Source: a virus
Taxonomy: Duplodnaviria > Caudoviricetes
DNA length: 64,000 nt
Reading direction: 5' to 3' (one strand)
Virus record (IMG/VR): IMGVR_UViG_3300045594_000287
Location: 1-64,000 of that record
Both the position numbers and the translations under genes were made by a program. The notes beneath the pieces are model-generated. The model had not been told where the DNA came from. It did no database searches and was given only the letters and a program-made list of their open reading frames with translations. Positions 1,436 to 21,267 of this stretch are shown here, in pieces. The stretch's first letter is position 1. Every line of letters begins with the position of its first letter.

Positions 1436-2251
1436 TCAGAAACCCTCTGCAACCTCAACCGTGTCGCTGTTGCGACGCTGAATGCTCGGAAGCATATCAC
1501 GGGTAGCACGCTCAACATCACGGACGTTCAGCAGATGAATCTGGAACGGGCTGAGATTGCTCTCGTCGTAGTTGCCATTCTCGTCAGCAACCGGAGTGCG
1601 GTCAATCTGATAGGAAATGGACTCTTCCTGAGTCTGCGGATTGGTCACCTTGTACTCATGTACAGTGAAGTCACCATCCTGGAACGGGTCACTGCAGACG
1701 ATGTTGCCATCTTCCGTAGCGCTGATACGATGACCAGTTTCCTCGTCCTTCGTGGATACGAGATGAATCTTCATCCCATCGGAAAGCTCTGTGCCTTCCT
1801 CGGCCGTTACGCCGTAGTAATACAGCTCACTGGCCTTGGTAAATACAACCTTGAGTTTGTCCTGCTCCTGAATGGATGCATGCATTTCGACGAAGTCGCC
1901 GATAGCGTCAAGCCATTCCTCGGACATCCAGTCCTTTACGAGCTTCTGAACAGTCTTATCGACATCACCATCGAAGTCCTTGAATACACGAGTGCATTCA
2001 AACGCACGGATAGCGGCGTCGTCCGGGAGGATGATGTTCAACTGGCCAGCCATCTGACCATCGAGTGCCTGCTGAATCGTCATTGCGGCGATACCCAGAG
2101 CGTTCGGGATGTTGCCACCCTCTGCGTCGGTGATGAACTCTGTTTCTTTGTTCTTGTACGTGTGCATAATGCGGCGTGCAACCTTATTGTTGCGTGCCTT
2201 GATAACTGCGACGTAGTTGGAAATACCTTTTTTCTTCGTGTTGTTAGCCAT
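1436..2251 (-). CDS. Hypothetical acidic protein (271 aa)
   Basis: ATG at 2251 (MANNTKKK) preceded by AGAAAGAGAGG; codon usage like the highly expressed genes. Confidence 0.8.
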   Translation of the reverse strand: MANNTKKKGISNYVAVIKARNNKVARRIMHTYKNKETEFITDAEGGNIPNALGIAAMTIQQALDGQMAGQLNIILPDDAAIRAFECTRVFKDFDGDVDKTVQKLVKDWMSEEWLDAIGDFVEMHASIQEQDKLKVVFTKASELYYYGVTAEEGTELSDGMKIHLVSTKDEETGHRISATEDGNIVCSDPFQDGDFTVHEYKVTNPQTQEESISYQIDRTPVADENGNYDESNLSPFQIHLLNVRDVERATRDMLPSIQRRNSDTVEVAEGF

Positions 2252-2875: not shown

Positions 2876-3031
2876 AAACCCATTAGGTCCTCGAATGACC
2901 AAAAGAAGTAGTAAGATAGGAGGTGGACGAAACAACAATGTAGATAGAAAGCAACGGACGAGTATCGAAAGCATTCGGGGTTAAGGGCGTCGTCCGTAGG
3001 ACGCCCAACCCCATCCCCCGTAGGGGGGGGG

Positions 3032-4723
3032 TCAGAATGCAGCAGAAACAGCATACTGGGAATAACGGGAAGAACGGCGAGTTGAGGTGGAAGCATTGGA
3101 GTTGCTAGAGAAGTTCCGGGCCGGCTGAGAAGTTACCGGGGCTTTACCATAGAATGCCAGGACATCACTGTTCGTCTTCGGTGCAGAAAGATTGTCGATA
3201 TAGACATTCTCTACCGTCTCAAAACGGGAAAGAGCGACGTACATCTGACCAGCCGCCCAGAGGTTCTGAGCATAGATGTTGCCAGATTTGTAAGTCTGAC
3301 CCTGAGACTTATGAATCGTAATGGCATAACCAAGAGCGAGGGGGATCTGCTTATAAGAACCAATGGTTACCCGGGAACCATTCTTATAGCCACAGATCTC
3401 CCACTCGTTGATGCCAATACCGCAACGACCAGCATCATCGAAGTCGACAGTAACCCCATCCCGGGAGAAACCGACAACCGTGCCGAACTGGCCATTCTTC
3501 AAACCAGCATCATTGATGTTGGTCATGAGGATAACACGAGCGCCCACCTTCAGCGTGAGCTCTTCTGGAACGACACGATCCGTCTCCTTCACGATGCCAT
3601 CAGAATTAGCGAAGAAGGTCTTCTCCTGCCCAGAGAGCTTGCTGAGCTCACGAGCATTGATTGCTGCAGCAGTCTTCTTGAAACCGCATAGCGTTACTGC
3701 ATCGGCAACAGGAACCTTGGCGCAATGTTCCTGAATATACTTGACACCATCGCTGCCACCAAAACGAATGTCATTGAGGGCAGCTGCATATTCCGGATTC
3801 TTCTGGCGAACAATCTCCGTTAGAAGATGCTTCTCGAAGCCCATCGTCTCCCAAGCCTTAGTCTTAAAAGCAAGACCTTCCGGATTACCAGGGAAGCGAC
3901 GATTAAACTCAGCCTGTTCGTTGCGGCTTACGACAGGAGCCAGCTGCGCGAAATCGCCGCACAGGATAACCTGGATGTGATGTTTCTTACTCTCCATCCA
4001 CACCGCCTTCATGACAGCAGTAAAGATGTCAGCACGCACCATGCTGATCTCGTCGATGATCAGCACTGACACCTTCTCCAGGTTAGAAGTGTCAGCTGTA
4101 CCCTCTGCGATGCCGATGCCAAGCTTGAAGAAGCTGTGCAGCGTCACGCCCTCAATATGCAGCGCTGCGATACCAGTCGGGGCGCAGATCGCTACGCTCT
4201 TACGGCCACGACGACTAACGACCTCCTTGATATACTTCTTAATCAAGAAACTCTTGCCAGCGCCTGCACCGCCAGACAGGAATACATTCTTACCAGAACG
4301 CATTGCCTCGAGAGCTTCAGACTGGCCAGCAGTCAGTCCATCGACCAACTTTGCTGCCGCTTCTTTCTTCACCTCCTCTTTGATGTTATTTACCTTTTCC
4401 ACGACAACCTCATCCTTGAGGATGCCGATGCATTTATATTTCATACCGGCCTTCTTGCTAACCGGTATGAATTTATCTACGAATTCCTGGAGGTCTTCCT
4501 TGACCCCGCCTCTCTTGTCGAATGTATATTCGACGTCACGGCGACCGAGAAGATGAGCGTAAGCAATCATACGTTCAGTCTCTAAAACATTCTCATTGCT
4601 AATAGCAACCCTAAGTGCTTCATTTGCTTTCATGTTCTTTACTACTACAAAACTGTTGTCCATCATTTTAATCTCCTCTTTCTTGTCTACAGCTGTATTG
4701 CTAGAAGTGTTAATATATCTCAT
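3032..4723 (-). CDS. Pif1/RecD-family (SF1B) DNA helicase
   Basis: Motifs GGAGAGKS (Walker A), APTGIAA, IIDEISM (Walker B), GDFAQL, EIVRQ, YAITIHKSQGQT, YVALSR. Start ATG 4723 with AAGGAGG; an alternative in-frame start at about 4666 also has an RBS. Confidence 0.92.
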   Translation of the reverse strand: MRYINTSSNTAVDKKEEIKMMDNSFVVVKNMKANEALRVAISNENVLETERMIAYAHLLGRRDVEYTFDKRGGVKEDLQEFVDKFIPVSKKAGMKYKCIGILKDEVVVEKVNNIKEEVKKEAAAKLVDGLTAGQSEALEAMRSGKNVFLSGGAGAGKSFLIKKYIKEVVSRRGRKSVAICAPTGIAALHIEGVTLHSFFKLGIGIAEGTADTSNLEKVSVLIIDEISMVRADIFTAVMKAVWMESKKHHIQVILCGDFAQLAPVVSRNEQAEFNRRFPGNPEGLAFKTKAWETMGFEKHLLTEIVRQKNPEYAAALNDIRFGGSDGVKYIQEHCAKVPVADAVTLCGFKKTAAAINARELSKLSGQEKTFFANSDGIVKETDRVVPEELTLKVGARVILMTNINDAGLKNGQFGTVVGFSRDGVTVDFDDAGRCGIGINEWEICGYKNGSRVTIGSYKQIPLALGYAITIHKSQGQTYKSGNIYAQNLWAAGQMYVALSRFETVENVYIDNLSAPKTNSDVLAFYGKAPVTSQPARNFSSNSNASTSTRRSSRYSQYAVSAAF

Positions 4724-4733
4724 AATGTCCTCC

Positions 4734-4934
4734 TTAAAATAAAGAAAGCTGCTCGACAGGAGCAGCAGCCATGGCAGCGCGTGGAACATAAGCATAGAGA
4801 TCGCGCAATCCTCTCCATCCCCATTTTTTACAGAAAAAATAGATTGCCTGTTTCTCACTGTAAGCAGCAATCTGTTCCGATGCTCTAGATCCTTTTACCA
4901 GAGCACTGACGTTGTAAATGTTTTTGATTTTCAT
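4734..4934 (-). CDS. Hypothetical protein (66 aa)
   Basis: AGGGGG RBS; fills the gap between the RNAP C-terminal gene and the helicase. Confidence 0.65.
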   Translation of the reverse strand: MKIKNIYNVSALVKGSRASEQIAAYSEKQAIYFFCKKWGWRGLRDLYAYVPRAAMAAAPVEQLSLF

Positions 4935-6962: not shown

Positions 6963-9026
6963 TTATAATGCTGCCTCGAAAGCCTTGTCATCAGCTTTTC
7001 TCTTGACATCCGTATCAATCACGACAGCAAGAGGAGTTACATTCCAGAGAATATCGACAAAGCCGATCTCTCCGTCACTTTCCTCCCCATATCCAACACA
7101 TGCATCCCCATCGAAGTCCATGCCTGCCAGCATATTCTTCAACTCTTCCAGAGCTGGGATGGCAATGTTACCACCGGTCATTTTGCCAGCCTGCTCGATA
7201 ATCAACTTCTTCTGATAAGCAGTCAACTTCTCAGAAGCATTGACTCTGCGAGCATACTCAGCTAAAGAAACCGGTACAGCCTTTGCAAACTCTCTGAAAT
7301 GCATCTTTGGATATTTCACCAGAATCATGCGATTCCATTTAGCTGCATTGGCAACTGGGCTGATCACTTCACATTCTCCATCCTTGGAATACGTGAGAAT
7401 CCGTGCACCGAAGTCGGCGGCAGGATCTGTCGTCAATTTCATATATGCACCAGGCACAGTTACATTCAAGCGATTGAATGCAGTGACCAATCCTTTGCAA
7501 GCATTGTCAATATTACTACGGAAAATCGGTGCATAGTTTTCCAAAACGAATTTTGGAGCAATGCGTCCGATCAGTTGTGGAATATCGACATTTCCACTAC
7601 TGATCTCCGCATACGTCGGTGCGGATCCTTCATCTGCAAGCAGACGCTCACGAATGCTCTCAATCATGGCACGCATCTTACGCTCATACCAGACCTTCGT
7701 GGCTACCGGATCGATAACCATTGCAGACTGGATGCTCTGCGACGATGCGTTTGCGCCAGATTCTGGATGATGTTCAGTATGAGACATATCCAATGCATTC
7801 AGGCCCGACATCCTTGTCAAGTCAAACGGAGCCTTGAGCCCATTGAGATCAGTAGCATAATCCGCTGCTTCCTCGTCGCTCTTCCTTGAATCGACAATGC
7901 GCACCCACTTCCCTGCATATGCGCCTTCTTTGCCTTTAGAAAACACCGTCTTTGTGAACTTCGCCTGGATTTTATCATCTACCTCGTCACGATAGATAGT
8001 AACCATTTTAGTATGGTCAACAGAAATGCGATAATTGACAAACTCTTTCAAGTAAGCCCTCATCACGCACTGAGCCATGACTTTGCAGGTCCAAGGCCTG
8101 GTCTGCAGCGAAATGCCAGCTGGTGCATCAGGCATAACGAAATACCTCTTCGGATCTATCGCAGTAAGGCACTCTGCAACGAATTCCGATGCGACCATTG
8201 CGAATCCATCCTTGAACTCATTTCCAAGATCATCCTTGATCTTGCCCATGTATACAACGAAATTGCCTACATTAAGGAGTGGGGTGCTGCTGGCGCAGAA
8301 CGCTGATAAACGAACATTGCCCTGAGCTACTTCTTTTGGAGAAGCAACGCATGCCAACTGGCAGAGCTGATCACTTGCACCATATGTGACCTTGCTCCAG
8401 ATTGCCTTCCTATCAACTCCAGGAAGGTTGCATGCCGGCATAGTCAGTGTGCTCAACTTAAGCTGGCCTGCTGTACCGCGTGCACAGCTGTCTACATCAT
8501 TGTAGACAATAACGTCTTCTTTAACGTTACCATCGGCATTGAATACCTCAGACAATGGGGCTTCGTTATCCTTTTCTTCACCGAAGCGAAGAAGATCAAT
8601 AAGAACGCCATCATTCTCTGGATTAACCGTGTAGAATCTTTCGTTTACACCATCCTCACGATCCGGCACACGATAAATAACCTGATCGAGGATATATGCC
8701 ATGGCTTTATTCTGAATGGAAACATCCAGAATACCAACGGTATATCTTTGCACCATCTGTGGGCAATCTGCTTCAGTAGTTGCAGCTACTAAAACATTTT
8801 CCTGCATTGGCAACAAGGACGTCTCCAAACTTGGAGTAACGGTGATCAGCATACGCTGAACGCTGTCCTCATTGAAAACGAGCGACGTAGCCTTAAAGCT
8901 AGTCTCTGGCCGACTAAGTGCAAGACTGCGCATTGCCTCTACCTGGTGGGCAGAGAGCACGACTTTCTTTCCAAGAGCACGCTGCTCCCGGATCTTCTCG
9001 TTGCGATGGCTAATAAACTTACTCAT
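6963..9026 (-). CDS. YonO/QDE-1-like double-psi beta-barrel RNA polymerase, catalytic N-terminal part (687 aa)
   Basis: Ordered motifs FKDGFAM (cf. TDG), LQTRPWTCK (cf. Q.R...K), KYPKMH (cf. K/R-x-P-x-x-H) and AGMDFDGD (DFDGD at nt 7104-7118). Start ATG 9026 with AAGGAGG. Confidence 0.85.
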   Translation of the reverse strand: MSKFISHRNEKIREQRALGKKVVLSAHQVEAMRSLALSRPETSFKATSLVFNEDSVQRMLITVTPSLETSLLPMQENVLVAATTEADCPQMVQRYTVGILDVSIQNKAMAYILDQVIYRVPDREDGVNERFYTVNPENDGVLIDLLRFGEEKDNEAPLSEVFNADGNVKEDVIVYNDVDSCARGTAGQLKLSTLTMPACNLPGVDRKAIWSKVTYGASDQLCQLACVASPKEVAQGNVRLSAFCASSTPLLNVGNFVVYMGKIKDDLGNEFKDGFAMVASEFVAECLTAIDPKRYFVMPDAPAGISLQTRPWTCKVMAQCVMRAYLKEFVNYRISVDHTKMVTIYRDEVDDKIQAKFTKTVFSKGKEGAYAGKWVRIVDSRKSDEEAADYATDLNGLKAPFDLTRMSGLNALDMSHTEHHPESGANASSQSIQSAMVIDPVATKVWYERKMRAMIESIRERLLADEGSAPTYAEISSGNVDIPQLIGRIAPKFVLENYAPIFRSNIDNACKGLVTAFNRLNVTVPGAYMKLTTDPAADFGARILTYSKDGECEVISPVANAAKWNRMILVKYPKMHFREFAKAVPVSLAEYARRVNASEKLTAYQKKLIIEQAGKMTGGNIAIPALEELKNMLAGMDFDGDACVGYGEESDGEIGFVDILWNVTPLAVVIDTDVKRKADDKAFEAAL

Positions 9027-9039
9027 TATGGTTTCCTCC

Positions 9040-9068
9040 TTTAATGGATAGACCACCTATGCTATAAT
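9040..9068 (+). promoter_or_regulatory. sigmaA-type extended -10 promoter P1 (antisense to the early operon)
   Basis: TG-C-TATAAT at 9060-9068; weak -35 TTTAAT at 17-bp spacing. Confidence 0.65.
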
Positions 9069-9105
9069 GAGTAATGCATAGGCGGGGTTAAATGGATAGA
9101 CATAG

Positions 9106-9141
9106 TTAAATGGATGGGACATTGTGCGATGACTTACTCAT
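9106..9141 (-). CDS. Putative leader uORF MSKSSHNVPSI sharing the start context of the RNAP gene
   Basis: AGGAAACCATAATGAGTAAGT is identical to the RNAP start context; stop at 9106-9108. Confidence 0.35.
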   Translation of the reverse strand: MSKSSHNVPSI

Positions 9142-9199
9142 TATGGTTTCCTTCTACCTTGTTTATGTACGAGAATACGGTTGCAGCCATATTCTCACG

Positions 9200-9228
9200 A
9201 GCCGGTTGTTGTCGCAGCCGGCTTTTTT
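9200..9228 (+). terminator. Intrinsic terminator of sRNA 1
   Basis: AGCCGGTTG-loop-CAGCCGGCT plus T run; the stem mismatch is a G-U wobble only on the + strand. Confidence 0.8.
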
Positions 9229-9248
9229 GTGCAAAGAGAAGGATTCCC

Positions 9249-9277
9249 TTGTCTGTAAGGGGTATCAGTGCTATAAT
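9249..9277 (+). promoter_or_regulatory. sigmaA promoter P2
   Basis: TTGTCT-17 bp-TATAAT with extended TG. Confidence 0.8.
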
Positions 9278-9283
9278 GAGCAA

Positions 9284-9383
9284 TGCATAAGTGTCTCCTA
9301 TTGAGTGGGTATGATTAACTATGCAACTGAGAGCGGTATTGCTGTTCTCCACGAAGTCGACTGCTGAGCACAGTCGGCTTTTT
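9284..9383 (+). ncRNA. Putative sRNA 2 (about 100 nt), same 3' architecture as sRNA 1
   Basis: Promoter P2, GAGA..TTCTC hairpin, terminator AAGTCGACTG/CAGTCGGCTT plus T run (9354-9383). Confidence 0.6.
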
Positions 9384-9416
9384 GTGTTACAAGAAGTTAA
9401 TCTCGGCTGCTGTGGT

Positions 9417-9445
9417 TTGAATGTGCCCTTCCGGCATGGTAGTTT
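9417..9445 (+). promoter_or_regulatory. Possible sigmaA promoter P3 (antisense to 9467-9688)
   Basis: TTGAAT-17 bp-TAGTTT with extended TG. Confidence 0.45.
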
Positions 9446-9466
9446 AACGTCATTCCGGACGATAGC

Positions 9467-9688
9467 TTACTGGATCTCGGCAGTGATGGTGTATTCTCCA
9501 TCTTCATAACTCTGGGATACAATCTTCATAGGAGCACCGCTCGTCTGACGGTATACGTCAACAATTGCTGCGCGGCGGGCCATCATCCTCCCCTGAGCAC
9601 CACCCATATTGACCGGTGCCATACCATGACCGACTACGATCATAGCAACGAGAGTAACAACGACTTTGAAACCTTTGAAATTAAACAT
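9467..9688 (-). CDS. Small protein with N-terminal hydrophobic/signal segment (73 aa)
   Basis: ATG 9688 right after the leader repeat RBS; MFNFKGFKVVVTLVAMIVVG. Confidence 0.7.
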   Translation of the reverse strand: MFNFKGFKVVVTLVAMIVVGHGMAPVNMGGAQGRMMARRAAIVDVYRQTSGAPMKIVSQSYEDGEYTITAEIQ

Positions 9689-9693
9689 AACGT

Positions 9694-9730
9694 ACCTCTT
9701 TCTCCCCGTATACGCCGATAGGACAGCAAT
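9694..9730 (-). repeat. 37-bp leader/RBS repeat, copy 1 (ATTGCTGTCCTATCGGCGTATACGGGGAGAAAGAGGT)
   Basis: Identical to 9993-10029, similar to 10243-10276. Confidence 0.9.
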
Positions 9731-9733
9731 CAA

Positions 9734-9814
9734 TTAATGGAGACGCTCTCCATGATCATCAAGATCAAGAAAAGCCTTAATAAATTCCCAAACCTCTTTA
9801 ATAAACTTTTTCAT
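9734..9814 (-). CDS. 26-aa amphipathic peptide MKKFIKEVWEFIKAFLDLDDHGERLH (not in the ORF track)
   Basis: Strong GAGGAGGA RBS; fills the gap between neighbouring elements. Confidence 0.6.
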   Translation of the reverse strand: MKKFIKEVWEFIKAFLDLDDHGERLH

Positions 9815-9828
9815 AACAGTTCCTCCTC

Positions 9829-9987
9829 TTACTTGTTAAGTTTTGCAATGTTTGCTGCCTGCGGATCACCATTCTTCCAAGCATCAGAAGCATCTTCAAA
9901 AGATACATCTTCCTCTGCCTTCACCATGTAGCCAATGGAAGCAGAAATACCAACAGCAGCGATAGCGACAAAAATGTAGATAGCCAT
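9829..9987 (-). CDS. Small membrane protein (52 aa)
   Basis: ATG 9987 after the leader repeat; N-terminal hydrophobic helix MAIYIFVAIAAVGISASIGYMV. Confidence 0.7.
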   Translation of the reverse strand: MAIYIFVAIAAVGISASIGYMVKAEEDVSFEDASDAWKNGDPQAANIAKLNK

Positions 9988-9992
9988 GATAA

Positions 9993-10029
9993 ACCTCTTT
10001 CTCCCCGTATACGCCGATAGGACAGCAAT
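9993..10029 (-). repeat. 37-bp leader/RBS repeat, copy 2
   Basis: Identical to 9694-9730. Confidence 0.9.
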
Positions 10030-10036
10030 AAAAAGA

Positions 10037-10237
10037 TTAAGCGTTTTCGACAATGTAACCACGGAAGATGTAATCACGAATCGTATCCGCGGTTACCTTC
10101 CCAGAGAAGTAGTCGTCAATTACCTTTTCCGTCTCTTTTCTGAGGCGAACAGGGAACTGTCCCATACGACCATTCTCCATAGGCAGCTCATACTGAACTC
10201 TGTAGTTGGATCCCTCAAAATCAAACGAAGTAAACAT
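10037..10237 (-). CDS. Hypothetical protein (66 aa)
   Basis: ATG 10237 after leader repeat copy 3. Confidence 0.7.
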   Translation of the reverse strand: MFTSFDFEGSNYRVQYELPMENGRMGQFPVRLRKETEKVIDDYFSGKVTADTIRDYIFRGYIVENA

Positions 10238-10242
10238 GATGT

Positions 10243-10276
10243 ACCTCTTTCTCCCCGTAGTCAGATAGGACAACAT
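10243..10276 (-). repeat. Leader/RBS repeat, divergent copy 3
   Basis: TGTCCTATCTGACTACGGGGAGAAAGAGGT. Confidence 0.8.
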
Positions 10277-10396
10277 CAGAATAAATACTCTTAACCCCTG
10301 TCTCTCACAGGGACGCCCATTCAACTCCGGTTTTCACGAGGCGCTACCTTAGTAGTTGGGTCGTCGTCTTTTATTTATAGTGCGTGACGTCAGCAC

Positions 10397-10425
10397 TTGC
10401 GTTTACCATAAGTAGGTGATAGAAT
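10397..10425 (+). promoter_or_regulatory. sigmaA promoter P4 (antisense to peptide gene 10426-10578)
   Basis: TTGCGT-17 bp-TAGAAT with extended TG. Confidence 0.75.
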
Positions 10426-10578
10426 TTATCTGTATTGTTCCACCACGACAGTCTGGAAGTTATCACTTCCATCAATAGCTGCAGGCGCCATAAGCACCAT
10501 TGCACCTATCAGTGCCGCCATAACGGCAGCGCCAATTCTGTTGAGGGTACGAGTTTTACCAAATACTTTAATAGTCAT
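10426..10578 (-). CDS. 50-aa single-TM peptide MTIKVFGKTRTLNRIGAAVMAALIGAMVLMAPAAI... (type I toxin-like; not in the ORF track)
   Basis: Translated by hand; AAAGGAG RBS; N-terminus similar to 10714-10851. Confidence 0.7.
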   Translation of the reverse strand: MTIKVFGKTRTLNRIGAAVMAALIGAMVLMAPAAIDGSDNFQTVVVEQYR

Positions 10579-10638
10579 GATTGCATTCTCCTTTCATGAC
10601 GCACTGCCCTAACATATCGTAAGTATGCTAGGGCTTTT
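10432..10638 (+). ncRNA. Putative cis-antisense RNA 3 covering peptide gene 10426-10578 and its RBS
   Basis: P4 upstream; hairpin GCCCTA..TAGGGC plus TTTT at 10606-10638 (one A-C mismatch on this strand). Confidence 0.5.
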
Positions 10639-10665
10639 CCTTATAGAAGGCAGTTTTTATTACCC

Positions 10666-10694
10666 TGGACATGCTCAGGCCCAGCTGTTACAAT
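10666..10694 (+). promoter_or_regulatory. sigmaA promoter P5 (antisense to peptide gene 10714-10851)
   Basis: TGGACA-17 bp-TACAAT with extended TG. Confidence 0.75.
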
Positions 10695-10700
10695 AAGAGA

Positions 10701-10914
10701 TGCAAGATATTGTTTACTGTGCGATACGAGCTAACTGCATAATATGCCCATACCAATCAGCACCTACCAGTGCTGCTACAGTTGCTATAGTATATACAGC
10801 TGCAGTAGCACGGTCTAATGAACGGATCTTGCCTAAAAATTTGATAGTCATGATTGAATCATCCTTTCTTCATGACGCCTTGCCCTAGCGTCCCTATGTG
10901 CTAGGGCTTTTTTT
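10701..10914 (+). ncRNA. Putative cis-antisense RNA 4 covering peptide gene 10714-10851 and its RBS
   Basis: P5 upstream; terminator GCCCTAGC/GCTAGGGC plus T7 at 10882-10914. Confidence 0.6.
10714..10851 (-). CDS. 45-aa single-TM peptide MTIKFLGKIRSLDRATAAVYTIATVAALVGA... (type I toxin-like; not in the ORF track)
   Basis: Translated by hand; AGAAAGGA RBS; leader shared with 10426-10578. Confidence 0.7.
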   Translation of the reverse strand: MTIKFLGKIRSLDRATAAVYTIATVAALVGADWYGHIMQLARIAQ

Positions 10915-11191
10915 GTTCTTTCTTTTCGCTCAAAAGAACTTCATTGAGAACACTACCCGGGGGCTCAAAAGCCCCCATTGATGTTTCATAAAAAGTACCG
11001 GGTCCCTCGATAAATTTTTTATAATTTTCGAATCCCTATAGGCGTTTTCTGAAAATATTTCATAACATTTTTTCTTTTCCTATAAATTTTCAGTATATTC
11101 GGTAAATTTCGGGCGGAGGTAACTTTTTAGATCCCAGATGAAGTACAGAATCTACGAAGCGTAATATTCCTGTATGAGGAGGGAAAAGAAT

Positions 11192-11479
11192 ATGTCAAAA
11201 GTATGGGTTAATGGAAAAGGGCCTGTAGAAGGCTCATTCTCTTTCGAAGTTGCACTTGATGAAACGGCACAGCCGCCTGTATATATCATTGAGGGAGTCT
11301 TTTCGTGTGCTCATGGGTACTATGAAGAGATCGACAGTTTGGTTAACGAGAGGTATCGTCTGGACCGTGTACGCGTGTACAAGGAAGTGTACGGATCCGA
11401 TGAGGATACAATCTTGTATTATTTTCGGGCTGGAGACTACGGAATGAGAGACTTTAAGGAGGAAAAGAAAGATGGCTGA
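11192..11479 (+). CDS. Hypothetical protein (95 aa)
   Basis: ATG 11192 with GAGGAGGG RBS; overlaps the start of the next gene. Confidence 0.75.
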   Translation: MSKVWVNGKGPVEGSFSFEVALDETAQPPVYIIEGVFSCAHGYYEEIDSLVNERYRLDRVRVYKEVYGSDEDTILYYFRAGDYGMRDFKEEKKDG

Positions 11480-12158
11480 AGAAAATGACGATGAGCTTCA
11501 GCTCATCGATGACTCTGGAGAGGTTGAAGCTTCTTTGGCAAGAACGAATCGAGAGAACTTTGAACGTTCGTTGGTTACGCAGAACCTTTGGCAGCATTCG
11601 GCGAAGGGCCTGGAAGCGAAACGTGCTGCCATGACTATGTTGTCGACGAAGACAGGTATGTATGCTCGTATTCCTTTACTTTGCAAAGGAGATGATTGTC
11701 CATACACAGATACGTGTCAGCTTCTCCCCTATGACCTGGCTCCTGTAGGCGAGTATTGTCCTCAGGAAACTGCTCAGATCGAGTTGAGAGCCAACGCGTA
11801 TGCTCAGGACTTCGATGTCGACACAATGAGTTTTACAGATAAAACTCTACTAAATGAAATCATCGGTTTCGACATCATGCTTGAACGCTGCAGAGCACTG
11901 ATGGCTAAGGAAGGCACGCCAGTGGTCGAAGTAGTAGCTGGGATAGCGGATAACGGAGACGAGATTAAACAACCTGCTGTGTCTAAAGCATGGGAAGCTT
12001 ACGAGAAGATCTCGAAGAAGCGAGATGCTGCTTATCAGCTCATGATGATGACGCGTAGGGATAACAAGAACAACTCTGACGAAGAACAGTCAGCTCTTTC
12101 TGCTATGTTGGACAACGTGATAACGGAACAAGATGTAGAGGAAGAGAAAGATAAGTAG
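11472..12158 (+). CDS. Hypothetical protein with Cys4 cluster, possible terminase small subunit
   Basis: CKGDDCPYTDTC...YCP, helical C-terminal half with PAV..WE; near the start of the packaging block. The function is positional inference. Confidence 0.45.
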   Translation: MAEENDDELQLIDDSGEVEASLARTNRENFERSLVTQNLWQHSAKGLEAKRAAMTMLSTKTGMYARIPLLCKGDDCPYTDTCQLLPYDLAPVGEYCPQETAQIELRANAYAQDFDVDTMSFTDKTLLNEIIGFDIMLERCRALMAKEGTPVVEVVAGIADNGDEIKQPAVSKAWEAYEKISKKRDAAYQLMMMTRRDNKNNSDEEQSALSAMLDNVITEQDVEEEKDK

Positions 12159-13872: not shown

Positions 13873-15351
13873 GTGAGAATATTGGCAGGAATATCGGGAA
13901 TAATGAAGCTGAATAAACTCTACAAGGCTATAGGAGAAGCAAAAGAAGCGCCTGGCTTGGCGAAAAAAACTTTGATGGAAAATGCCTTCAAGGAGCATGG
14001 CGTAGTCGGAATAAACGTAGTAAATGCGCAGGAAAAAGTTTATAAGCCGAGTTTGGCAGCTGACTTTAGAAAAACTGAATCACCATCTGGAGCTTCAATG
14101 TGGGGAGTTCCTAATGGAAATGGCGGATACAATGTTGTGCCAAACTTAAATAGAGGATTCGAAGCGCAGGCATATAAATCTGGCGGAATTTCGGAACTCT
14201 ACGGCTCAAACTATAATGGTGGTAGCATTAAACCGGATGAAATCAGTATCGCAAAACCAGCCTCCATTAAATTCAATGGAGATAAGGGGCAAATCACTTC
14301 TACTGGTACGATGAGTTTAAGAAATGGCGGTAGCGAATTTAGAGAAGCAGGAGCAGATCTGGCAGAGGTCCAAAGAGCAGAAATCCCTTTGAAAGAACGA
14401 AATGAAGCGAAAATTACGGAACCAGTAGCTCGAGAGGCGCCTAATCCCGCTCCAGCCTCAACTGTTTCTGCTCCGGAAGAAGTTGCTACCACTCAACCAT
14501 CAAGAGGCGGAAACAGTCAGAATCATCCTGTCAAAAAGAAAAGAGTTCATGCCAAAGATGTACGTGAACAACAGCAAGCGCAAACACGAGCGGGACAGCA
14601 GGAAAAAGCTGAAGCTAAGGCTGCAGCTAACGAGACCAAAGAACAGCGGCAAGCCAGGGCTCAAGCTGATTTTGAACGAAAATCAGAAGAGCAATGGAAT
14701 AAGCAGCAGCAAGAACGCGAAGATTACGATAAACGTAATGAAAGAAAAATTGATCCGGCCGATGAAGTCAAGCTCCACAGCGACAACATTGATAGGCAAC
14801 TTGAAAAAGTTCAAGCTGGGATAGATGAATCTCAGGCGGAAACTAAACGGATAGAAAAAGAAATTGAAGAGAGTCACGCCGAAAAACCGGCAGACCAGTC
14901 ACCACCGGACATCGGGCTAAGGACTTCTGGAGAAGCTCCAAAAGCAGATGCAAGTTTTACATATGACGAAGAATTTGGGGCAAAACTCGATGAGATGGCC
15001 AATGATAAGTCAAGGAATCGTGCAGAAAGATACGCTTCGAAAAGTGCATCTCGATCGTATCGGGAATATACAGACCAATATGCCGATCTGGCGAAGGATG
15101 GAACCCCAGATCCAGAAAAATTATCGGCATTAAATAAAAAATATGGAGTATCCGGGGACGCATCTGAAATGCAGGATAGTTTTTTGAAAAAAGCTTCGAA
15201 TCCTGGCGTGATGGACTATGTCGGAGGGTACGACGTAGTACCAGTTGCAACTTCGTCAGTTGTTTTGGGTGGAGCTGTATCGAGCGTATTTGGAAATAAA
15301 GGACAAAGGAGCAATGCGGACCTTTATGGGGATCCGTTCGCAGGACAATAA
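13873..15351 (+). CDS. Hypothetical protein with coiled-coil/low-complexity middle (492 aa)
   Basis: Long ORF; stop overlaps the TerL start (TAATG). Confidence 0.75.
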   Translation: MRILAGISGIMKLNKLYKAIGEAKEAPGLAKKTLMENAFKEHGVVGINVVNAQEKVYKPSLAADFRKTESPSGASMWGVPNGNGGYNVVPNLNRGFEAQAYKSGGISELYGSNYNGGSIKPDEISIAKPASIKFNGDKGQITSTGTMSLRNGGSEFREAGADLAEVQRAEIPLKERNEAKITEPVAREAPNPAPASTVSAPEEVATTQPSRGGNSQNHPVKKKRVHAKDVREQQQAQTRAGQQEKAEAKAAANETKEQRQARAQADFERKSEEQWNKQQQEREDYDKRNERKIDPADEVKLHSDNIDRQLEKVQAGIDESQAETKRIEKEIEESHAEKPADQSPPDIGLRTSGEAPKADASFTYDEEFGAKLDEMANDKSRNRAERYASKSASRSYREYTDQYADLAKDGTPDPEKLSALNKKYGVSGDASEMQDSFLKKASNPGVMDYVGGYDVVPVATSSVVLGGAVSSVFGNKGQRSNADLYGDPFAGQ

Positions 15352-17120
15352 TGGCAAAATTATCACCAGTACAACAAGCAAAACTCAGAAAAATAATGGC
15401 TGACCCAGTTCTATGGGCTAAGGCATTCTTAGTTTCAAACGATGCGCAGACAAAAAAGATGGGCCCGTGGCAGGCTCGTGATTACCAGGAAGAGATGCTT
15501 CACGATAAATCACTTCGTAAGGTATACCGCTGCGGTCGTCGTACTGGTAAATCAGAGACGATGGTTGTTGAAGGTATGCATAAGGCATTCACGAACAAGA
15601 TGTTCCGCGTTCTGTACGTTACCCCGTATGAGAACCAGGTCAATCTGCTCTTCATGCGCATGCGTGAGCTGATTCACGACTCGCCTCTCATCAAACGAGA
15701 GGTAGTCAAAATGAAGAACTCTCCATATACGATCGAATTCAGCAATGGATCCGTAATCATGGGTTTCACGACCGGTGCATCATCGGGATCCGGCGCAGCA
15801 TCAATCCGTGGTCAACGAGCCGATTGGTTGATGCTTGACGAGTTGGACTACATGGGCGAGTCAGATTACTCTACGGTCGCAATGATCGCCGGCGAGCGTG
15901 CTGATATTGGTATCACTGCTTCCTCTACCCCAACTGGTAAACGAGGAACGTTCTATAAGATGTGCACGGATGCGAAGATGGGTTACCAGGAGCACTATCA
16001 TCCATCAATGCACAACCCGAACTGGTGTCAGGAAATGGAAGACCAGTTCAGATCAGAGCTTACACCGTCACAGTACGATCATGAGATCCTCGCCATATTC
16101 GGTACAGAGGAATCTGGTGTATTCGATAAAGACAAAGTCGACCTTGCATCAAGAACAGATTGGTATACCTATGATAAGTTGAGCGAAACGCAGCTCAGAC
16201 AGCTTGACGGCAAGAAAGAACCAGCATATCTCGATTATTCTTATGAAAACCCCGCCCCTCTCAACCCGTTTCGCTGTATAGGCGTTGATTGGGACCAATT
16301 TCAAGCGAGTAGTTCAATAATTGTTTTGGATTACGACATTAAAAGAAAAGTCTTCAGAGTAATAAAGAGAGTAGAAGTTCCGCGTGCGGAGTACACGATC
16401 GATAATGCGGTCAACTGGGTTATCCGGATGAATCACATCTATAACCCCTCCTGGATCTTCTGCGACCGTGGATACGGAGACTACCAGATTGAACGTCTTC
16501 ATATCTATGGGGATCAACATCCGTCGTCAGGTTTGAAGAACAAAGTAATTGGTTATCAGTTCAAGAACACTTTGGACATCATGGATCCGATTACTCAAGT
16601 CATCACGAAAGAGCCGATGAAGCCATTCATGGTAAATCAGCTCGTTATGGCATTCGACCGGCAGCGGCTTATCCTCTCCCCTTTCGACGAGACTCTTCAT
16701 AAACAGCTTATCGACTATTGTGTCGAAAGAATTTCCCAGAGCGGACAGCCGGTATATACATCCGTAAACGAGCATTTTGTGGATGCACTCGGTCTCGCCT
16801 ATCTGGCATTCGTTTTGAAGTTCCCAGATATCACGCGCGCAATTAAGCGTCCGCAGATTACTTCGAAAATGGAGCACTCCTCAGTACAGCTTGGAATGTC
16901 AAAAGCCAACGTTGCATTGAGGGAAATTTCATCACCCACGGCAAACCCTTGGAAAAAACGAGACAACTACGTACAGGCCGGCAAAGGTCCGAACGAACGT
17001 CGCGGAGATTACCAACAATGGGTTCACGTACCTCTTACTTCAGCAAGGCCATCGTCTAGTGGCGGTTCTAGCTGGGGTGCACGTTCCGGAATGGGAACTG
17101 GAGGCCGTTCAATGTGGTAG
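15351..17120 (+). CDS. terL: Terminase large subunit
   Basis: YQ adenine-binding motif, GRRTGKS Walker A, MLDE Walker B, STP motif III, RNase H-like nuclease GVDW...D...HFVDAL. Confidence 0.95.
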   Translation: MAKLSPVQQAKLRKIMADPVLWAKAFLVSNDAQTKKMGPWQARDYQEEMLHDKSLRKVYRCGRRTGKSETMVVEGMHKAFTNKMFRVLYVTPYENQVNLLFMRMRELIHDSPLIKREVVKMKNSPYTIEFSNGSVIMGFTTGASSGSGAASIRGQRADWLMLDELDYMGESDYSTVAMIAGERADIGITASSTPTGKRGTFYKMCTDAKMGYQEHYHPSMHNPNWCQEMEDQFRSELTPSQYDHEILAIFGTEESGVFDKDKVDLASRTDWYTYDKLSETQLRQLDGKKEPAYLDYSYENPAPLNPFRCIGVDWDQFQASSSIIVLDYDIKRKVFRVIKRVEVPRAEYTIDNAVNWVIRMNHIYNPSWIFCDRGYGDYQIERLHIYGDQHPSSGLKNKVIGYQFKNTLDIMDPITQVITKEPMKPFMVNQLVMAFDRQRLILSPFDETLHKQLIDYCVERISQSGQPVYTSVNEHFVDALGLAYLAFVLKFPDITRAIKRPQITSKMEHSSVQLGMSKANVALREISSPTANPWKKRDNYVQAGKGPNERRGDYQQWVHVPLTSARPSSSGGSSWGARSGMGTGGRSMW

Positions 17121-19158: not shown

Positions 19159-21267
19159 ATGAAACTTATAGAAAATATAAAAACTGCATTGGGGCTCAGT
19201 ATCCCCAACAACACGAAGCCAAAAAAAGTAATCACCGAAGCCACGGGAAGTACTTCGGGGCAGATCTCTCAAGCAAACATCAAGAATTTTGTAGTAAAGG
19301 CTGTCGGTAACGTCAGTGAAGGCTCAAATGGTGATTTTACCTCTTCTTCTTACGATCTGAGCGAGATTAAGGATGCAATCGCTGCAGATTCCTACATTAA
19401 GCTGGCCATAACGAAATATAGCCAGTTGGTTTTCAAGGCCGGCTACAATATCGTCAGCCAGAACGATGCTGCGGCTGAATACATCAGATCCCGCTTCAGA
19501 ATGATGGGATTCATGACAGGAACCCCTATGGATGTCGTCCTTCAGCAGGTTGCTGATGACCTTGTCTCCTACTCCAACGCCTTTCTTGTTAAAAGCCGTG
19601 TCGATATGACAAATATCGGCGGCTTACAGGCAAAAGGTATCCTAGACACGAAACCAGTAGGCGGATATTTCCGCGTAGACCCATCAACGGTACAGATCAA
19701 GACAGACAAGACCGGTACAATCAAACAGTACCAGCAGCAGTCCGGACAGAACACCACGAAGTTCAAGCCGACGGATGTCATTCATATCTATATGGATAAG
19801 CAGGGCGGCGAGCTCTTCGGAACCCCTCGTATCGTCGCTGCGATGGAAGACGTAAAACTCTTACGGAAAATCGAAGGTAATGTCCTGACACTGATCTATC
19901 GTTTCGCCATTCCTCTCTATCAGATGAAGATTGGCCTGCCTGAAGCCGGCTTTATGGCTACCGACCAGGAAATTACGGATGCAAAGAATGAAGTAGAGAA
20001 GCTGGCAAGCGATGGTATCCTCGTAACTAACGAAAGAACGGAATTCGATGCGATTGGTGCAGAAGGGACGGCTCTCGACGCTACAGGATACCTGAATTAC
20101 TTCGAAAAGCGCGTTTTTGCTGCTCTGAATATGTCTGAAGCTATGATGGGACGCGGCGGAGCTAAACAGGATGCTGATTCCATGGAACAGCAGATCCACG
20201 ACTCTGTTAAATACTTCCAGCGCACTCTTGAGATCTTCATTGAAGAGAAGCTGATAAATGAGCTGCTTCTTGAGGGCGGATATAACCCAATCATGAATGA
20301 GCAGGACATCGTACAGTTCCAGTTCGAGGAAATCGACCTCGATACTAAGGTGAAGATGGAAAGCCATGCAATGAATCAGTTCCAGGGCAATGCAATCCCG
20401 TTCGAAGAGATGCGTACACAGCTTGGCCAGCGTGCAGACAATGTCGACGAGTCGAGACTGTACGACAATATGATCAAGCAGCCTAATGCATTGGCGCTCG
20501 TCAACGCCAAACTCTCGCAGAGCGGAACAGGATCTGCCTCGGCCAATACCGGCACTTCCGGTCCATCGAAAACGAAAACGACAAATGGTACGATCAAGAA
20601 TACCATGCAGCCTAGGAATCAGCATGGAACGACTACGGCCAACATCAAGGAGTCGTTTTTAGACCTGAAAGAGTCTTCTACACAGTCAAACATCGATAAG
20701 TACAAGAAAAATTTCCCATCTGTGTTCAAAAAGTATACGACAACGCGTAATGATGTATGTGAACATGGCGTTAAAGCTTATGTAGCACTGCCTCTTGCAC
20801 GAGATAGCATTGTGAAAGAGCTTAAAAGTCAGGTTGCGTTTGAAGCCCAAGGCGGCATACAGAAAGCTCTGAAAGACAGCGGTAAAAAACCGGATGCTCT
20901 CAGGAAAGTATCACTAAAACTGATTAACGACAAAATAGAGACTGTTACTACAAACATGTTTAAGGATATCCGAAAACGTTTGAATACCGCAAAGACTTAT
21001 GAAGATCGCGAAGCGGCCTTTAACGCTGTCGAGTATCGAATGAGATTCTTATGCGAGGAAATCATTTCTAAGGCTCGTTGGTTTGGTTATGTGAAAGCTT
21101 GTAGCCAACTTGGCATTGACCAGGTTTATGTGAACTTTGGAAAGAGTGATGACAATGAGACTCACGATGCCATCGTTCATACAAATAAATTTAGCCTGGA
21201 CGACATTCCCGCTTTTCATGCGTACTGTACGTGTAAAATCGGACTCGAAAAGGCAGGTGATAAGTAA
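19159..21267 (+). CDS. Portal protein with C-terminal MuF/gp7-like extension
   Basis: Position before the protease; portal-like NAFL..., DVIHI...LFGTP, ALNMSEAMMG, FEEMR..LG; terminal PAFHAYCTC resembles the MuF PxHxxCRC motif. Confidence 0.85.
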   Translation: MKLIENIKTALGLSIPNNTKPKKVITEATGSTSGQISQANIKNFVVKAVGNVSEGSNGDFTSSSYDLSEIKDAIAADSYIKLAITKYSQLVFKAGYNIVSQNDAAAEYIRSRFRMMGFMTGTPMDVVLQQVADDLVSYSNAFLVKSRVDMTNIGGLQAKGILDTKPVGGYFRVDPSTVQIKTDKTGTIKQYQQQSGQNTTKFKPTDVIHIYMDKQGGELFGTPRIVAAMEDVKLLRKIEGNVLTLIYRFAIPLYQMKIGLPEAGFMATDQEITDAKNEVEKLASDGILVTNERTEFDAIGAEGTALDATGYLNYFEKRVFAALNMSEAMMGRGGAKQDADSMEQQIHDSVKYFQRTLEIFIEEKLINELLLEGGYNPIMNEQDIVQFQFEEIDLDTKVKMESHAMNQFQGNAIPFEEMRTQLGQRADNVDESRLYDNMIKQPNALALVNAKLSQSGTGSASANTGTSGPSKTKTTNGTIKNTMQPRNQHGTTTANIKESFLDLKESSTQSNIDKYKKNFPSVFKKYTTTRNDVCEHGVKAYVALPLARDSIVKELKSQVAFEAQGGIQKALKDSGKKPDALRKVSLKLINDKIETVTTNMFKDIRKRLNTAKTYEDREAAFNAVEYRMRFLCEEIISKARWFGYVKACSQLGIDQVYVNFGKSDDNETHDAIVHTNKFSLDDIPAFHAYCTCKIGLEKAGDK

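Follow-up and report, generated by a model that had tools for sequence, protein, structure and literature searches.

Why does a phage place two small membrane-peptide genes at the head of its leftward early operon, each wholly inside a transcription unit that faces the other way? Do such pairs form type I toxin-antitoxin (TA) cassettes that act as addiction modules, as the original prediction proposed among other options, or does the same architecture serve a different end? The genes lie in a 106,938-bp IMG/VR virus record (completeness 45% by CheckV), the first 64 kb of which make up the stretch analysed here, hereafter the window. Leftward genes, among them one for a Pif1/Dda-like helicase (3032-4870), start at about 10,850, and rightward genes, which include those for the large terminase (15351-17120) and the portal protein (19159-21267), run from 11,174. 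The nearest match of the terminase is that of Moorella phage MTATph1 (43% identity), followed by the Bacillus jumbo phages 0305phi8-36, WH1, Edson and KLEB27-3; the first rightward protein (228 aa) finds the same relatives. A DNA search with positions 9000-12000 against cultured phages gave no match. The host is very likely a member of the Bacillota, for which sigmaA promoters, intrinsic terminators and strong Shine-Dalgarno (SD) sites are the appropriate models, and strong SD sites are in use in this phage.

Peptide A (45 aa; 10714-10851, minus strand) is the product of the first gene of the leftward operon. Peptide B (50 aa; 10426-10578, minus strand) combines a basic N-terminus, about 21 hydrophobic residues and the C-terminal motif FQxxVVExYR. 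Each gene has its own SD and ATG, and both products begin with MTIK..GK.R.L.R, followed by the hydrophobic stretch. Two peptide ORFs of these sizes with a common leader had been predicted, and both are in place: the leaders (10549-10611 and 10822-10887) are 77-79% identical, and the cassettes, of about 450 bp as a whole, align across the leader and the first 14 codons. Several residues that A and B have in common are written with different codons (ATC/ATT, GGC/GGT, AAG/AAA, TTA/CTC, CGT/AGA), which indicates that the N-termini are conserved at the level of the protein. Differences between near-identical strains are mainly synonymous (dN 0.009 and dS 0.156 between B and its counterpart in strain L017), and peptide A has a strain variant, A26V. 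Judged by this synonymous-biased divergence, A and B are paralogous, genuine minus-strand genes under purifying selection. Two plus-strand ORFs, 10700-10888 (62 aa, its ATG coinciding with the predicted start site) and 10435-10599, were rejected as coding: their relative frames differ between A and B, they are not conserved, and strain substitutions at third positions of the B gene fall on first positions of the ORF opposite. In strains L017, L019, L020 and L021 cassette A is absent and B is preceded by an unrelated 50-aa soluble ORF that has a terminator of its own, so that small cassettes appear to swap in and out between the divergent promoters and the putative polymerase genes.

Are these peptides known toxins? 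Searches with single peptides matched words in near-identical strains only, and a full profile search was needed to reveal a family. The first round of this HMMER search brought up P0006 (52 aa) and P0007 (67 aa); a second returned about 15 clusters, most of which follow the pattern MYIRINGKxRSLNRxLAAIAVAAIxAGQAYILPxAIHGxFxFQDxVVEAYRK. One more 67-aa member, in IMG/VR contig L011, came from a local hmmsearch; the membrane segment and the C-terminal motif are kept there and the N-terminus is different. The members, 45-67 aa long, reside in related uncultured phage contigs with phage-like, syntenic surroundings: the downstream ORFs of L028 (680 and 729 aa) come near the leftward ORFs of the window (697 and 643 aa) by size alone, as does an opposite-strand ORF of L029 (231 aa) to the 228-aa protein of the window. 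Within the 52-aa group, dN/dS is 0.08-0.35. Peptide B has both conserved ends of the family. Peptide A, which matches the profile (hmmsearch E 3.5e-16), retains the N-terminal half only and is a diverged paralogue that lacks the C-terminal motif; the C-termini of A and B are completely different. Peptides A and B thus appear to belong to a conserved, unnamed family of single-pass membrane peptides of about 50 aa, encoded in the early regions of jumbo phages akin to 0305phi8-36 and MTATph1.

The family did not lead us to any known toxin. Pfam, searched with the peptides at E up to 10, gave no hit, and NCBIfam, PADLOC and PHROGs returned noise only. No homology was found to the type I toxin families in Pfam and NCBIfam (Hok, Fst, TxpA/BsrG, Ldr, Ibs, TisB and others), so that membership in one of them finds no backing in these four collections. 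The ESM Atlas gave no usable match. Scans for close relatives of P0006 in bacterial genomes and IMG/VR found none, and the small leftward ORFs of MTATph1 encode no homologous peptide. When the leader pattern was used as the query, IMG/VR returned a single chance match, in the unrelated contig L022, and the JGI metagenomes none.

What, then, speaks for a membrane toxin? Such a reading would draw on how small and hydrophobic the peptides are: over 17 residues, hydropathy peaks at 1.75 in A and 2.39 in B, and both are shorter than about 60 aa and have a predicted membrane helix, as type I toxins do. Against it, the family conserves polar motifs at both ends, NGKxRSLNR and PxAIHGxFxFQDxVVEAYRK, and such motifs on either side of the helix suggest specific partners and not general membrane damage.

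The same features can be read in a second way, namely as secreted pre-peptides from which Sec-type cleavage would release a C-terminal peptide of 13-17 aa, for instance an extracellular signal; antisense control would be compatible with this. By eye, the first 14 residues contain 2-4 basic ones and are followed by 16-18 hydrophobic residues with a proline at about -6, and small residues at the putative -1 and -3 positions (IHG, VHA, IDG, VGA) fit Gram-positive signal peptides. The length of 45-52 aa resembles that of Phr and AimP precursors, and the common N-terminal part of A and B ahead of divergent tails would also suit a precursor. However, unlike in ordinary signal peptides, few parts of the protein are as conserved as the N-terminal segment, which argues against cleavage and disposal of that part. 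P0007 and P0017 carry Asp at the putative -1 position, and no receptor-like gene adjoins the peptide gene. AlphaFold2, run on the alignment, returns a beta-hairpin (residues 2-11) and one long continuous helix across residues 12-49 (mean pLDDT 72). We regard secretion as quite unlikely.

We turn from the peptides to the DNA opposite them. Just past each peptide stop, on the plus strand, lies a sigmaA-type promoter with an extended -10, directed back over the gene. In unit A it is TGGACA-17-TGtTACAAT (10666-10694; -35 at 10666-71, -10 at 10689-94), with a score of 12 that places it among the three best sigmaA-like sites of the 107-kb genome. In unit B it is TTGCGT-17-TGaTAGAAT (10397-10425; score 10); its -35 (10397-402) matches 3 of 6 consensus positions, and its -10 (10420-25) abuts the stop codon of peptide B. 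The chance level was set by the best promoter score per random 70-nt window of this genome, for which scores of at least 10, 11 and 12 have P=0.039, 0.007 and 0.001. Three of the ten best sigmaA-like sites on both strands of the 107 kb fall on the plus strand of 9.0-10.9 kb (9063, 9272 and 10689). Beside the unit B promoter, outside its -35, is a palindromic hairpin, GTGCgTGACGTCAGCAC (10380-10396).

Each unit ends just past the SD of its peptide gene in a hairpin and T-run, as had been foreseen. Terminator A (10882-10914, plus strand) is an intrinsic terminator with the stem GCCCTAGC/GCTAGGGC and T7 (hairpin 10882-10907, -14.9 kcal/mol); its complement is HP1, the 5' hairpin of the peptide A leader. 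Terminator B (10606-10644, plus strand) is a weak one, made of a hairpin and TTTTCCTTAT (hairpin 10606-10634 with TTTTCCTT, -12.6 kcal/mol). In its stem a G.U pair of the minus strand becomes an A.C mismatch on the plus strand, so that the minus-strand form, HP1-B, pairs better; the original prediction had raised this caveat itself, rightly. A second leader hairpin follows in both genes. HP2-A (10847-10876, minus strand) pairs GUCAUGA with UCAUGAC, which buries the AUG in the stem and leaves the SD in the loop, and the 72-nt leader of peptide A folds at -23.7 kcal/mol (z -5.5 against shuffled controls). HP2-B (10574-10600, minus strand) likewise pairs the AUG (z -4.5). HP2 is absent from the 52-aa group. 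A genome-wide terminator scan placed four compact plus-strand terminators within 2 kb, at 9223, 9379, 10635 and 10908, all antisense to the leftward coding strand; similar compact terminators follow rightward genes elsewhere in the phage.

Promoter and terminator together delimit two predicted antisense RNAs. Antisense RNA A (10701-10914, plus strand, about 214 nt; fold -66.7 kcal/mol, z -4.7) would cover the entire peptide A ORF, its SD and its leader. Antisense RNA B (10432-10641, plus strand, about 210 nt; fold -60.4 kcal/mol, z -3.6) would do so for peptide B, and it would extend into unit A if the weak terminator leaks. The ORFs thus sit inside promoter-terminator units, which is the nested sense/antisense geometry first proposed for this locus.

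Is this arrangement kept by selection? In the relatives, we scanned the opposite strand across 70 nt beyond each peptide stop. Promoters scoring 10-12 lie no more than 20 nt past the stop in the majority of independent lineages: in both units of the window and in L017 (which has the unit B promoter), in L029 (TTGACT-17-TATACT, as also in L030; score 10), in L033 and L034 (TTGACC-17-TATAAT; score 11) and in L031 (a perfect TTGACA-17-TATAAT; score 12). No good proximal promoter was found in L025, L026 or L028: L028 has TATAAT without a -35 (score 8), and the proximal sites of the other two score 7. L025 has a perfect TTGACA-18-TATAAT past the next small gene, and L026 has TTGACT-17-TACAAT in the same situation. 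In L011, TGGACA-17-TATAAT (score 11) follows a second gene of 25 aa. The exact position has shifted during divergence, the unit B promoter being some 23 nt nearer its gene than that of L033. A hairpin or palindrome with the core TGACGTCA and a covarying outer stem lies just past the peptide stop in L029, L033, L034 and L028; in L029, L033 and L034 it occupies the 17-nt spacer of the backward promoter, and in unit B of the window it lies outside the -35. Within the spacer it could be an operator. A promoter that moves and is nevertheless retained matches what selection predicts, and this turnover of position with function kept suggests selection for the backward promoter.

The sense strand gives a different picture. 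Within 250 nt upstream of the peptide gene, no sigmaA-like site scores above 9 at any of the ten loci scanned, which equals the background for 240-nt windows. Of the two transcription units expected of a type I TA pair, then, the antisense one, with its own promoter and terminator, is predicted from sequence and is conserved in relatives, and no sigmaA-type promoter of the peptide gene itself was found at 10/10 loci, where a phage-polymerase promoter may act instead. Nor are the cassettes autonomous, since they lack this sense promoter and since in some relatives one backward promoter spans the peptide gene together with its neighbour.

At the other end of the unit, a strong hairpin precedes the ATG by 50-140 nt in 11/11 loci, with stems that vary (GCCCTAG, GCCCCTAAG, GCCCCTGA, GGGCCATG, GACCCAG, GCCGCTCAA). 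The T-run on its antisense side is clear in unit A (T7), L017 (T6), L011 and L031, reaches T4 in L029 and is weak in unit B; in L025, L028, L033 and L034 a long hairpin with an AU-rich base has an antisense T3 at most or none. The hairpin of L017 lies 13 nt after the sense terminator of the preceding gene, back to back with it, an arrangement that would be expected where transcript ends converge. The stem of L028 resembles that of unit B in that G.U pairs on the sense strand become mismatches on the antisense strand. The upstream hairpin may accordingly serve the mRNA, or both RNAs, as a terminator on one and as a 5' hairpin on the other, and its two complementary forms could be the site of first contact between them. 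Other roles were considered and rejected. For an N4-type hairpin promoter, the loops vary too much (5-13 nt) and the genome has no more than two copies; for cleavage by RNase III, the stems of 8-10 bp are too short. The motifs GGCGT and CCTATMGGCGT, tried as a genome-wide phage promoter, occur only locally.

Could the plus-strand promoters and terminators work without regulating the peptides at all? They might insulate the late rightward operon, act by transcriptional interference or yield RNAs with other jobs, while the hairpins stabilise the 5' end of the sense mRNA. The G.U pairs that favour folding of the sense strand fit such a role, as does the plus-strand terminator that most relatives have at the border of their divergent region, and backward promoters are not limited to one type of gene. 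Yet a promoter has been kept within about 20 nt of the stop of this one family in several lineages while its position turned over, and a fully complementary transcript must pair with the mRNA whenever both are present. We consider a role apart from the peptides very unlikely.

With a confidence somewhat above even, we favour antisense-RNA gating of early peptide genes, wired like the ibs/Sib type I TA pairs and probably acting as a switch during infection. The sense mRNA, which has no host-type promoter, would probably be made by a putative phage RNA polymerase and would open with two hairpins, the second of which pairs the AUG. A host sigmaA promoter past the stop codon would fire back over ORF, SD and leader and end at the hairpin and U-run, giving an RNA of about 210 nt that is fully complementary to the peptide mRNA. 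As long as the host RNA polymerase is active, this RNA would pair with the mRNA and block its translation, and the duplex would probably be exposed to RNase III. Peptide would be made once antisense output drops or sense output outgrows it. The idea that the peptides are held off by antisense RNA was in this respect a sound one, as the backward promoter and the upstream hairpin are both kept in relatives. Several findings run counter to the gating model: the lack of a good proximal backward promoter in L025, L026 and L028, the short or missing antisense T-runs of L025, L028, L033 and L034, the G.U pairs of the unit B and L028 stems, which fit the sense strand, and the soluble small genes under backward promoters in L005 and L026. 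If the model is true, a type I TA architecture would be working outside addiction. The locus also supplies a family of peptides that can be aligned, together with a conserved RNA layout, for a group of phages in which gene control has hardly been studied.

How close does this come to a true type I TA system, in which the peptides would damage the membrane, labile antisense RNAs would act as antitoxins, and the purpose would be host killing or the addiction of a prophage or carrier state? In the ibs/Sib loci of E. coli, a small hydrophobic peptide ORF lies inside a cis-antisense unit that has a promoter and terminator of its own, and the pairs are repeated in tandem. Here, too, a small hydrophobic ORF of 45-50 aa lies wholly within a conserved antisense unit, in tandem copies, and the leader pairs the AUG, as in many toxin mRNAs. 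Ibs peptides, however, are 18-19 aa long and chromosomal, and both ibs/Sib RNAs are made by the host polymerase, whereas the phage peptides have 45-67 aa, conserved polar ends and no sequence similarity to Ibs, and are encoded in a phage early operon without a host-type sense promoter. The type I TA pairs of Bacillota prophages (txpA/RatA, bsrG/SR4, yonT/SR6, and CD0956.2/RCd10 of C. difficile with its relatives) match one-helix membrane toxins of 28-60 aa with an antisense RNA driven by sigmaA, and RNase III acts on the resulting duplex (PMC6563280). The present locus resembles them in being a small one-helix peptide with a sigmaA-type antisense unit on a mobile element of the Bacillota, as far as sequence can tell. 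It differs in that the overlap is complete, whereas theirs is convergent, and in that the basic segment is N-terminal, whereas their toxins have a hydrophobic N-terminus and a charged C-terminal tail (PMC6563280). The element, moreover, has the look of a lytic-type jumbo phage: 0305phi8-36, its cultured relative, has been described as lytic, no integrase or resolvase is present in the 107 kb (45% complete by CheckV), and bacterial genomes yielded no family member in the close-relative search. Together with the lack of a match in Pfam, NCBIfam, PADLOC or PHROGs and with the polar ends, these points leave a true type I TA system unlikely in our view, and the addiction role put forward originally finds no support in them.

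The genes found under backward promoters bear on the same issue. In L025, a 47-aa ORF (1822-1965, plus strand) adjoins the family member and is covered by the same perfect TTGACA-18-TATAAT; its product, with a membrane helix at the N-terminus and a basic tail, has the usual shape of Bacillota type I toxins, and this does favour a TA reading. Soluble proteins are covered as well. In L005, the first leftward gene (3032-3235; soluble, about 65 aa) is flanked by a plus-strand promoter (2993-3020) and terminator (3299-3325), and L026 encodes a homologue (726-899) that is followed by a backward promoter (region 726-1000). The L026 promoter spans the peptide gene and its soluble neighbour, while the L005 unit nests the soluble homologue alone, so that this small family (57-65 aa, motif GDLVRDV) comes with a backward sigmaA-type promoter in two distinct phage settings. 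Since soluble genes are covered in L005 and L026, the backward-promoter design is, by this comparison, not confined to membrane peptides. Other small genes, too, are followed by the promoter-with-hairpin module in L033 and L028.

Further units of this kind occur within the window. At 9040-9386 (plus strand), in the non-coding gap before the gene for a 687-aa putative polymerase subunit, there are two more promoter-to-terminator units, with extended -10 promoters TGCTATAAT at 9060 and 9269, placed within a 21-nt repeat, and terminators at 9199-9230 and 9353-9386. The first RNA carries a segment (9132-9155) that is a 23/24 copy of 9017-9040 and that makes it complementary to the SD and start codon of the 687-aa gene. 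The energy of this anti-RBS duplex is -50.2 kcal/mol, versus -31.5 +/- 4.2 for shuffles.

Backward promoters on non-membrane genes and the units at 9040-9386 speak for an antisense layer that covers the early region in general. The two peptide genes would then be two of the targets of this wider layer, and their cassettes not an addiction module. We do not file them as type I TA: no homologue turned up among known toxins, the sense strand has no host-type promoter, nothing indicates a prophage or an addiction role, and backward promoters cover other genes besides those for membrane peptides. An extension of antisense gating, which we put forward tentatively, is that the host RNA polymerase acts as a sensor: its antisense RNAs would silence early products, and the block would lift at host shutoff. 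Such a timer of polymerase handover, built from type I TA-like parts and common to 0305phi8-36-like jumbo phages, would have as its targets the membrane peptides and, through the anti-RBS RNA of 9075-9231, the putative YonO-like polymerase subunit.

Other repeated elements share the region. A second leader, CTGTCCTATCGGCGTATACGGGGAGAAAGAGG, recurs on the minus strand at 9694-9733, 9993-10032 and 10228-10276, directly before three unrelated small genes at which no backward promoter was found; in L017 it precedes the putative polymerase-subunit gene. Peptide B is followed by a conserved structured RNA element (10296-10364, minus strand), which starts with AAGACGACGACCC and has a multi-stem fold of 24 predicted pairs, 9 of them with compensatory changes and with G.U pairs that fit the minus (leftward) strand. 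Rfam, searched at E up to 10, returned nothing but noise for it. The element is common to relatives at only about 45% peptide identity, and in L028 it stands after a different gene. The divergent region that precedes the rightward operon has a conserved element, TTTTTTATAATTTT(c)GAAATCCCTATAGGCGT, at 11014-11045 (plus strand) of the window and at 3538-3570 of L005; this element is a possible phage-polymerase promoter. The CCTATAGGCGT within it resembles the core of the second leader.
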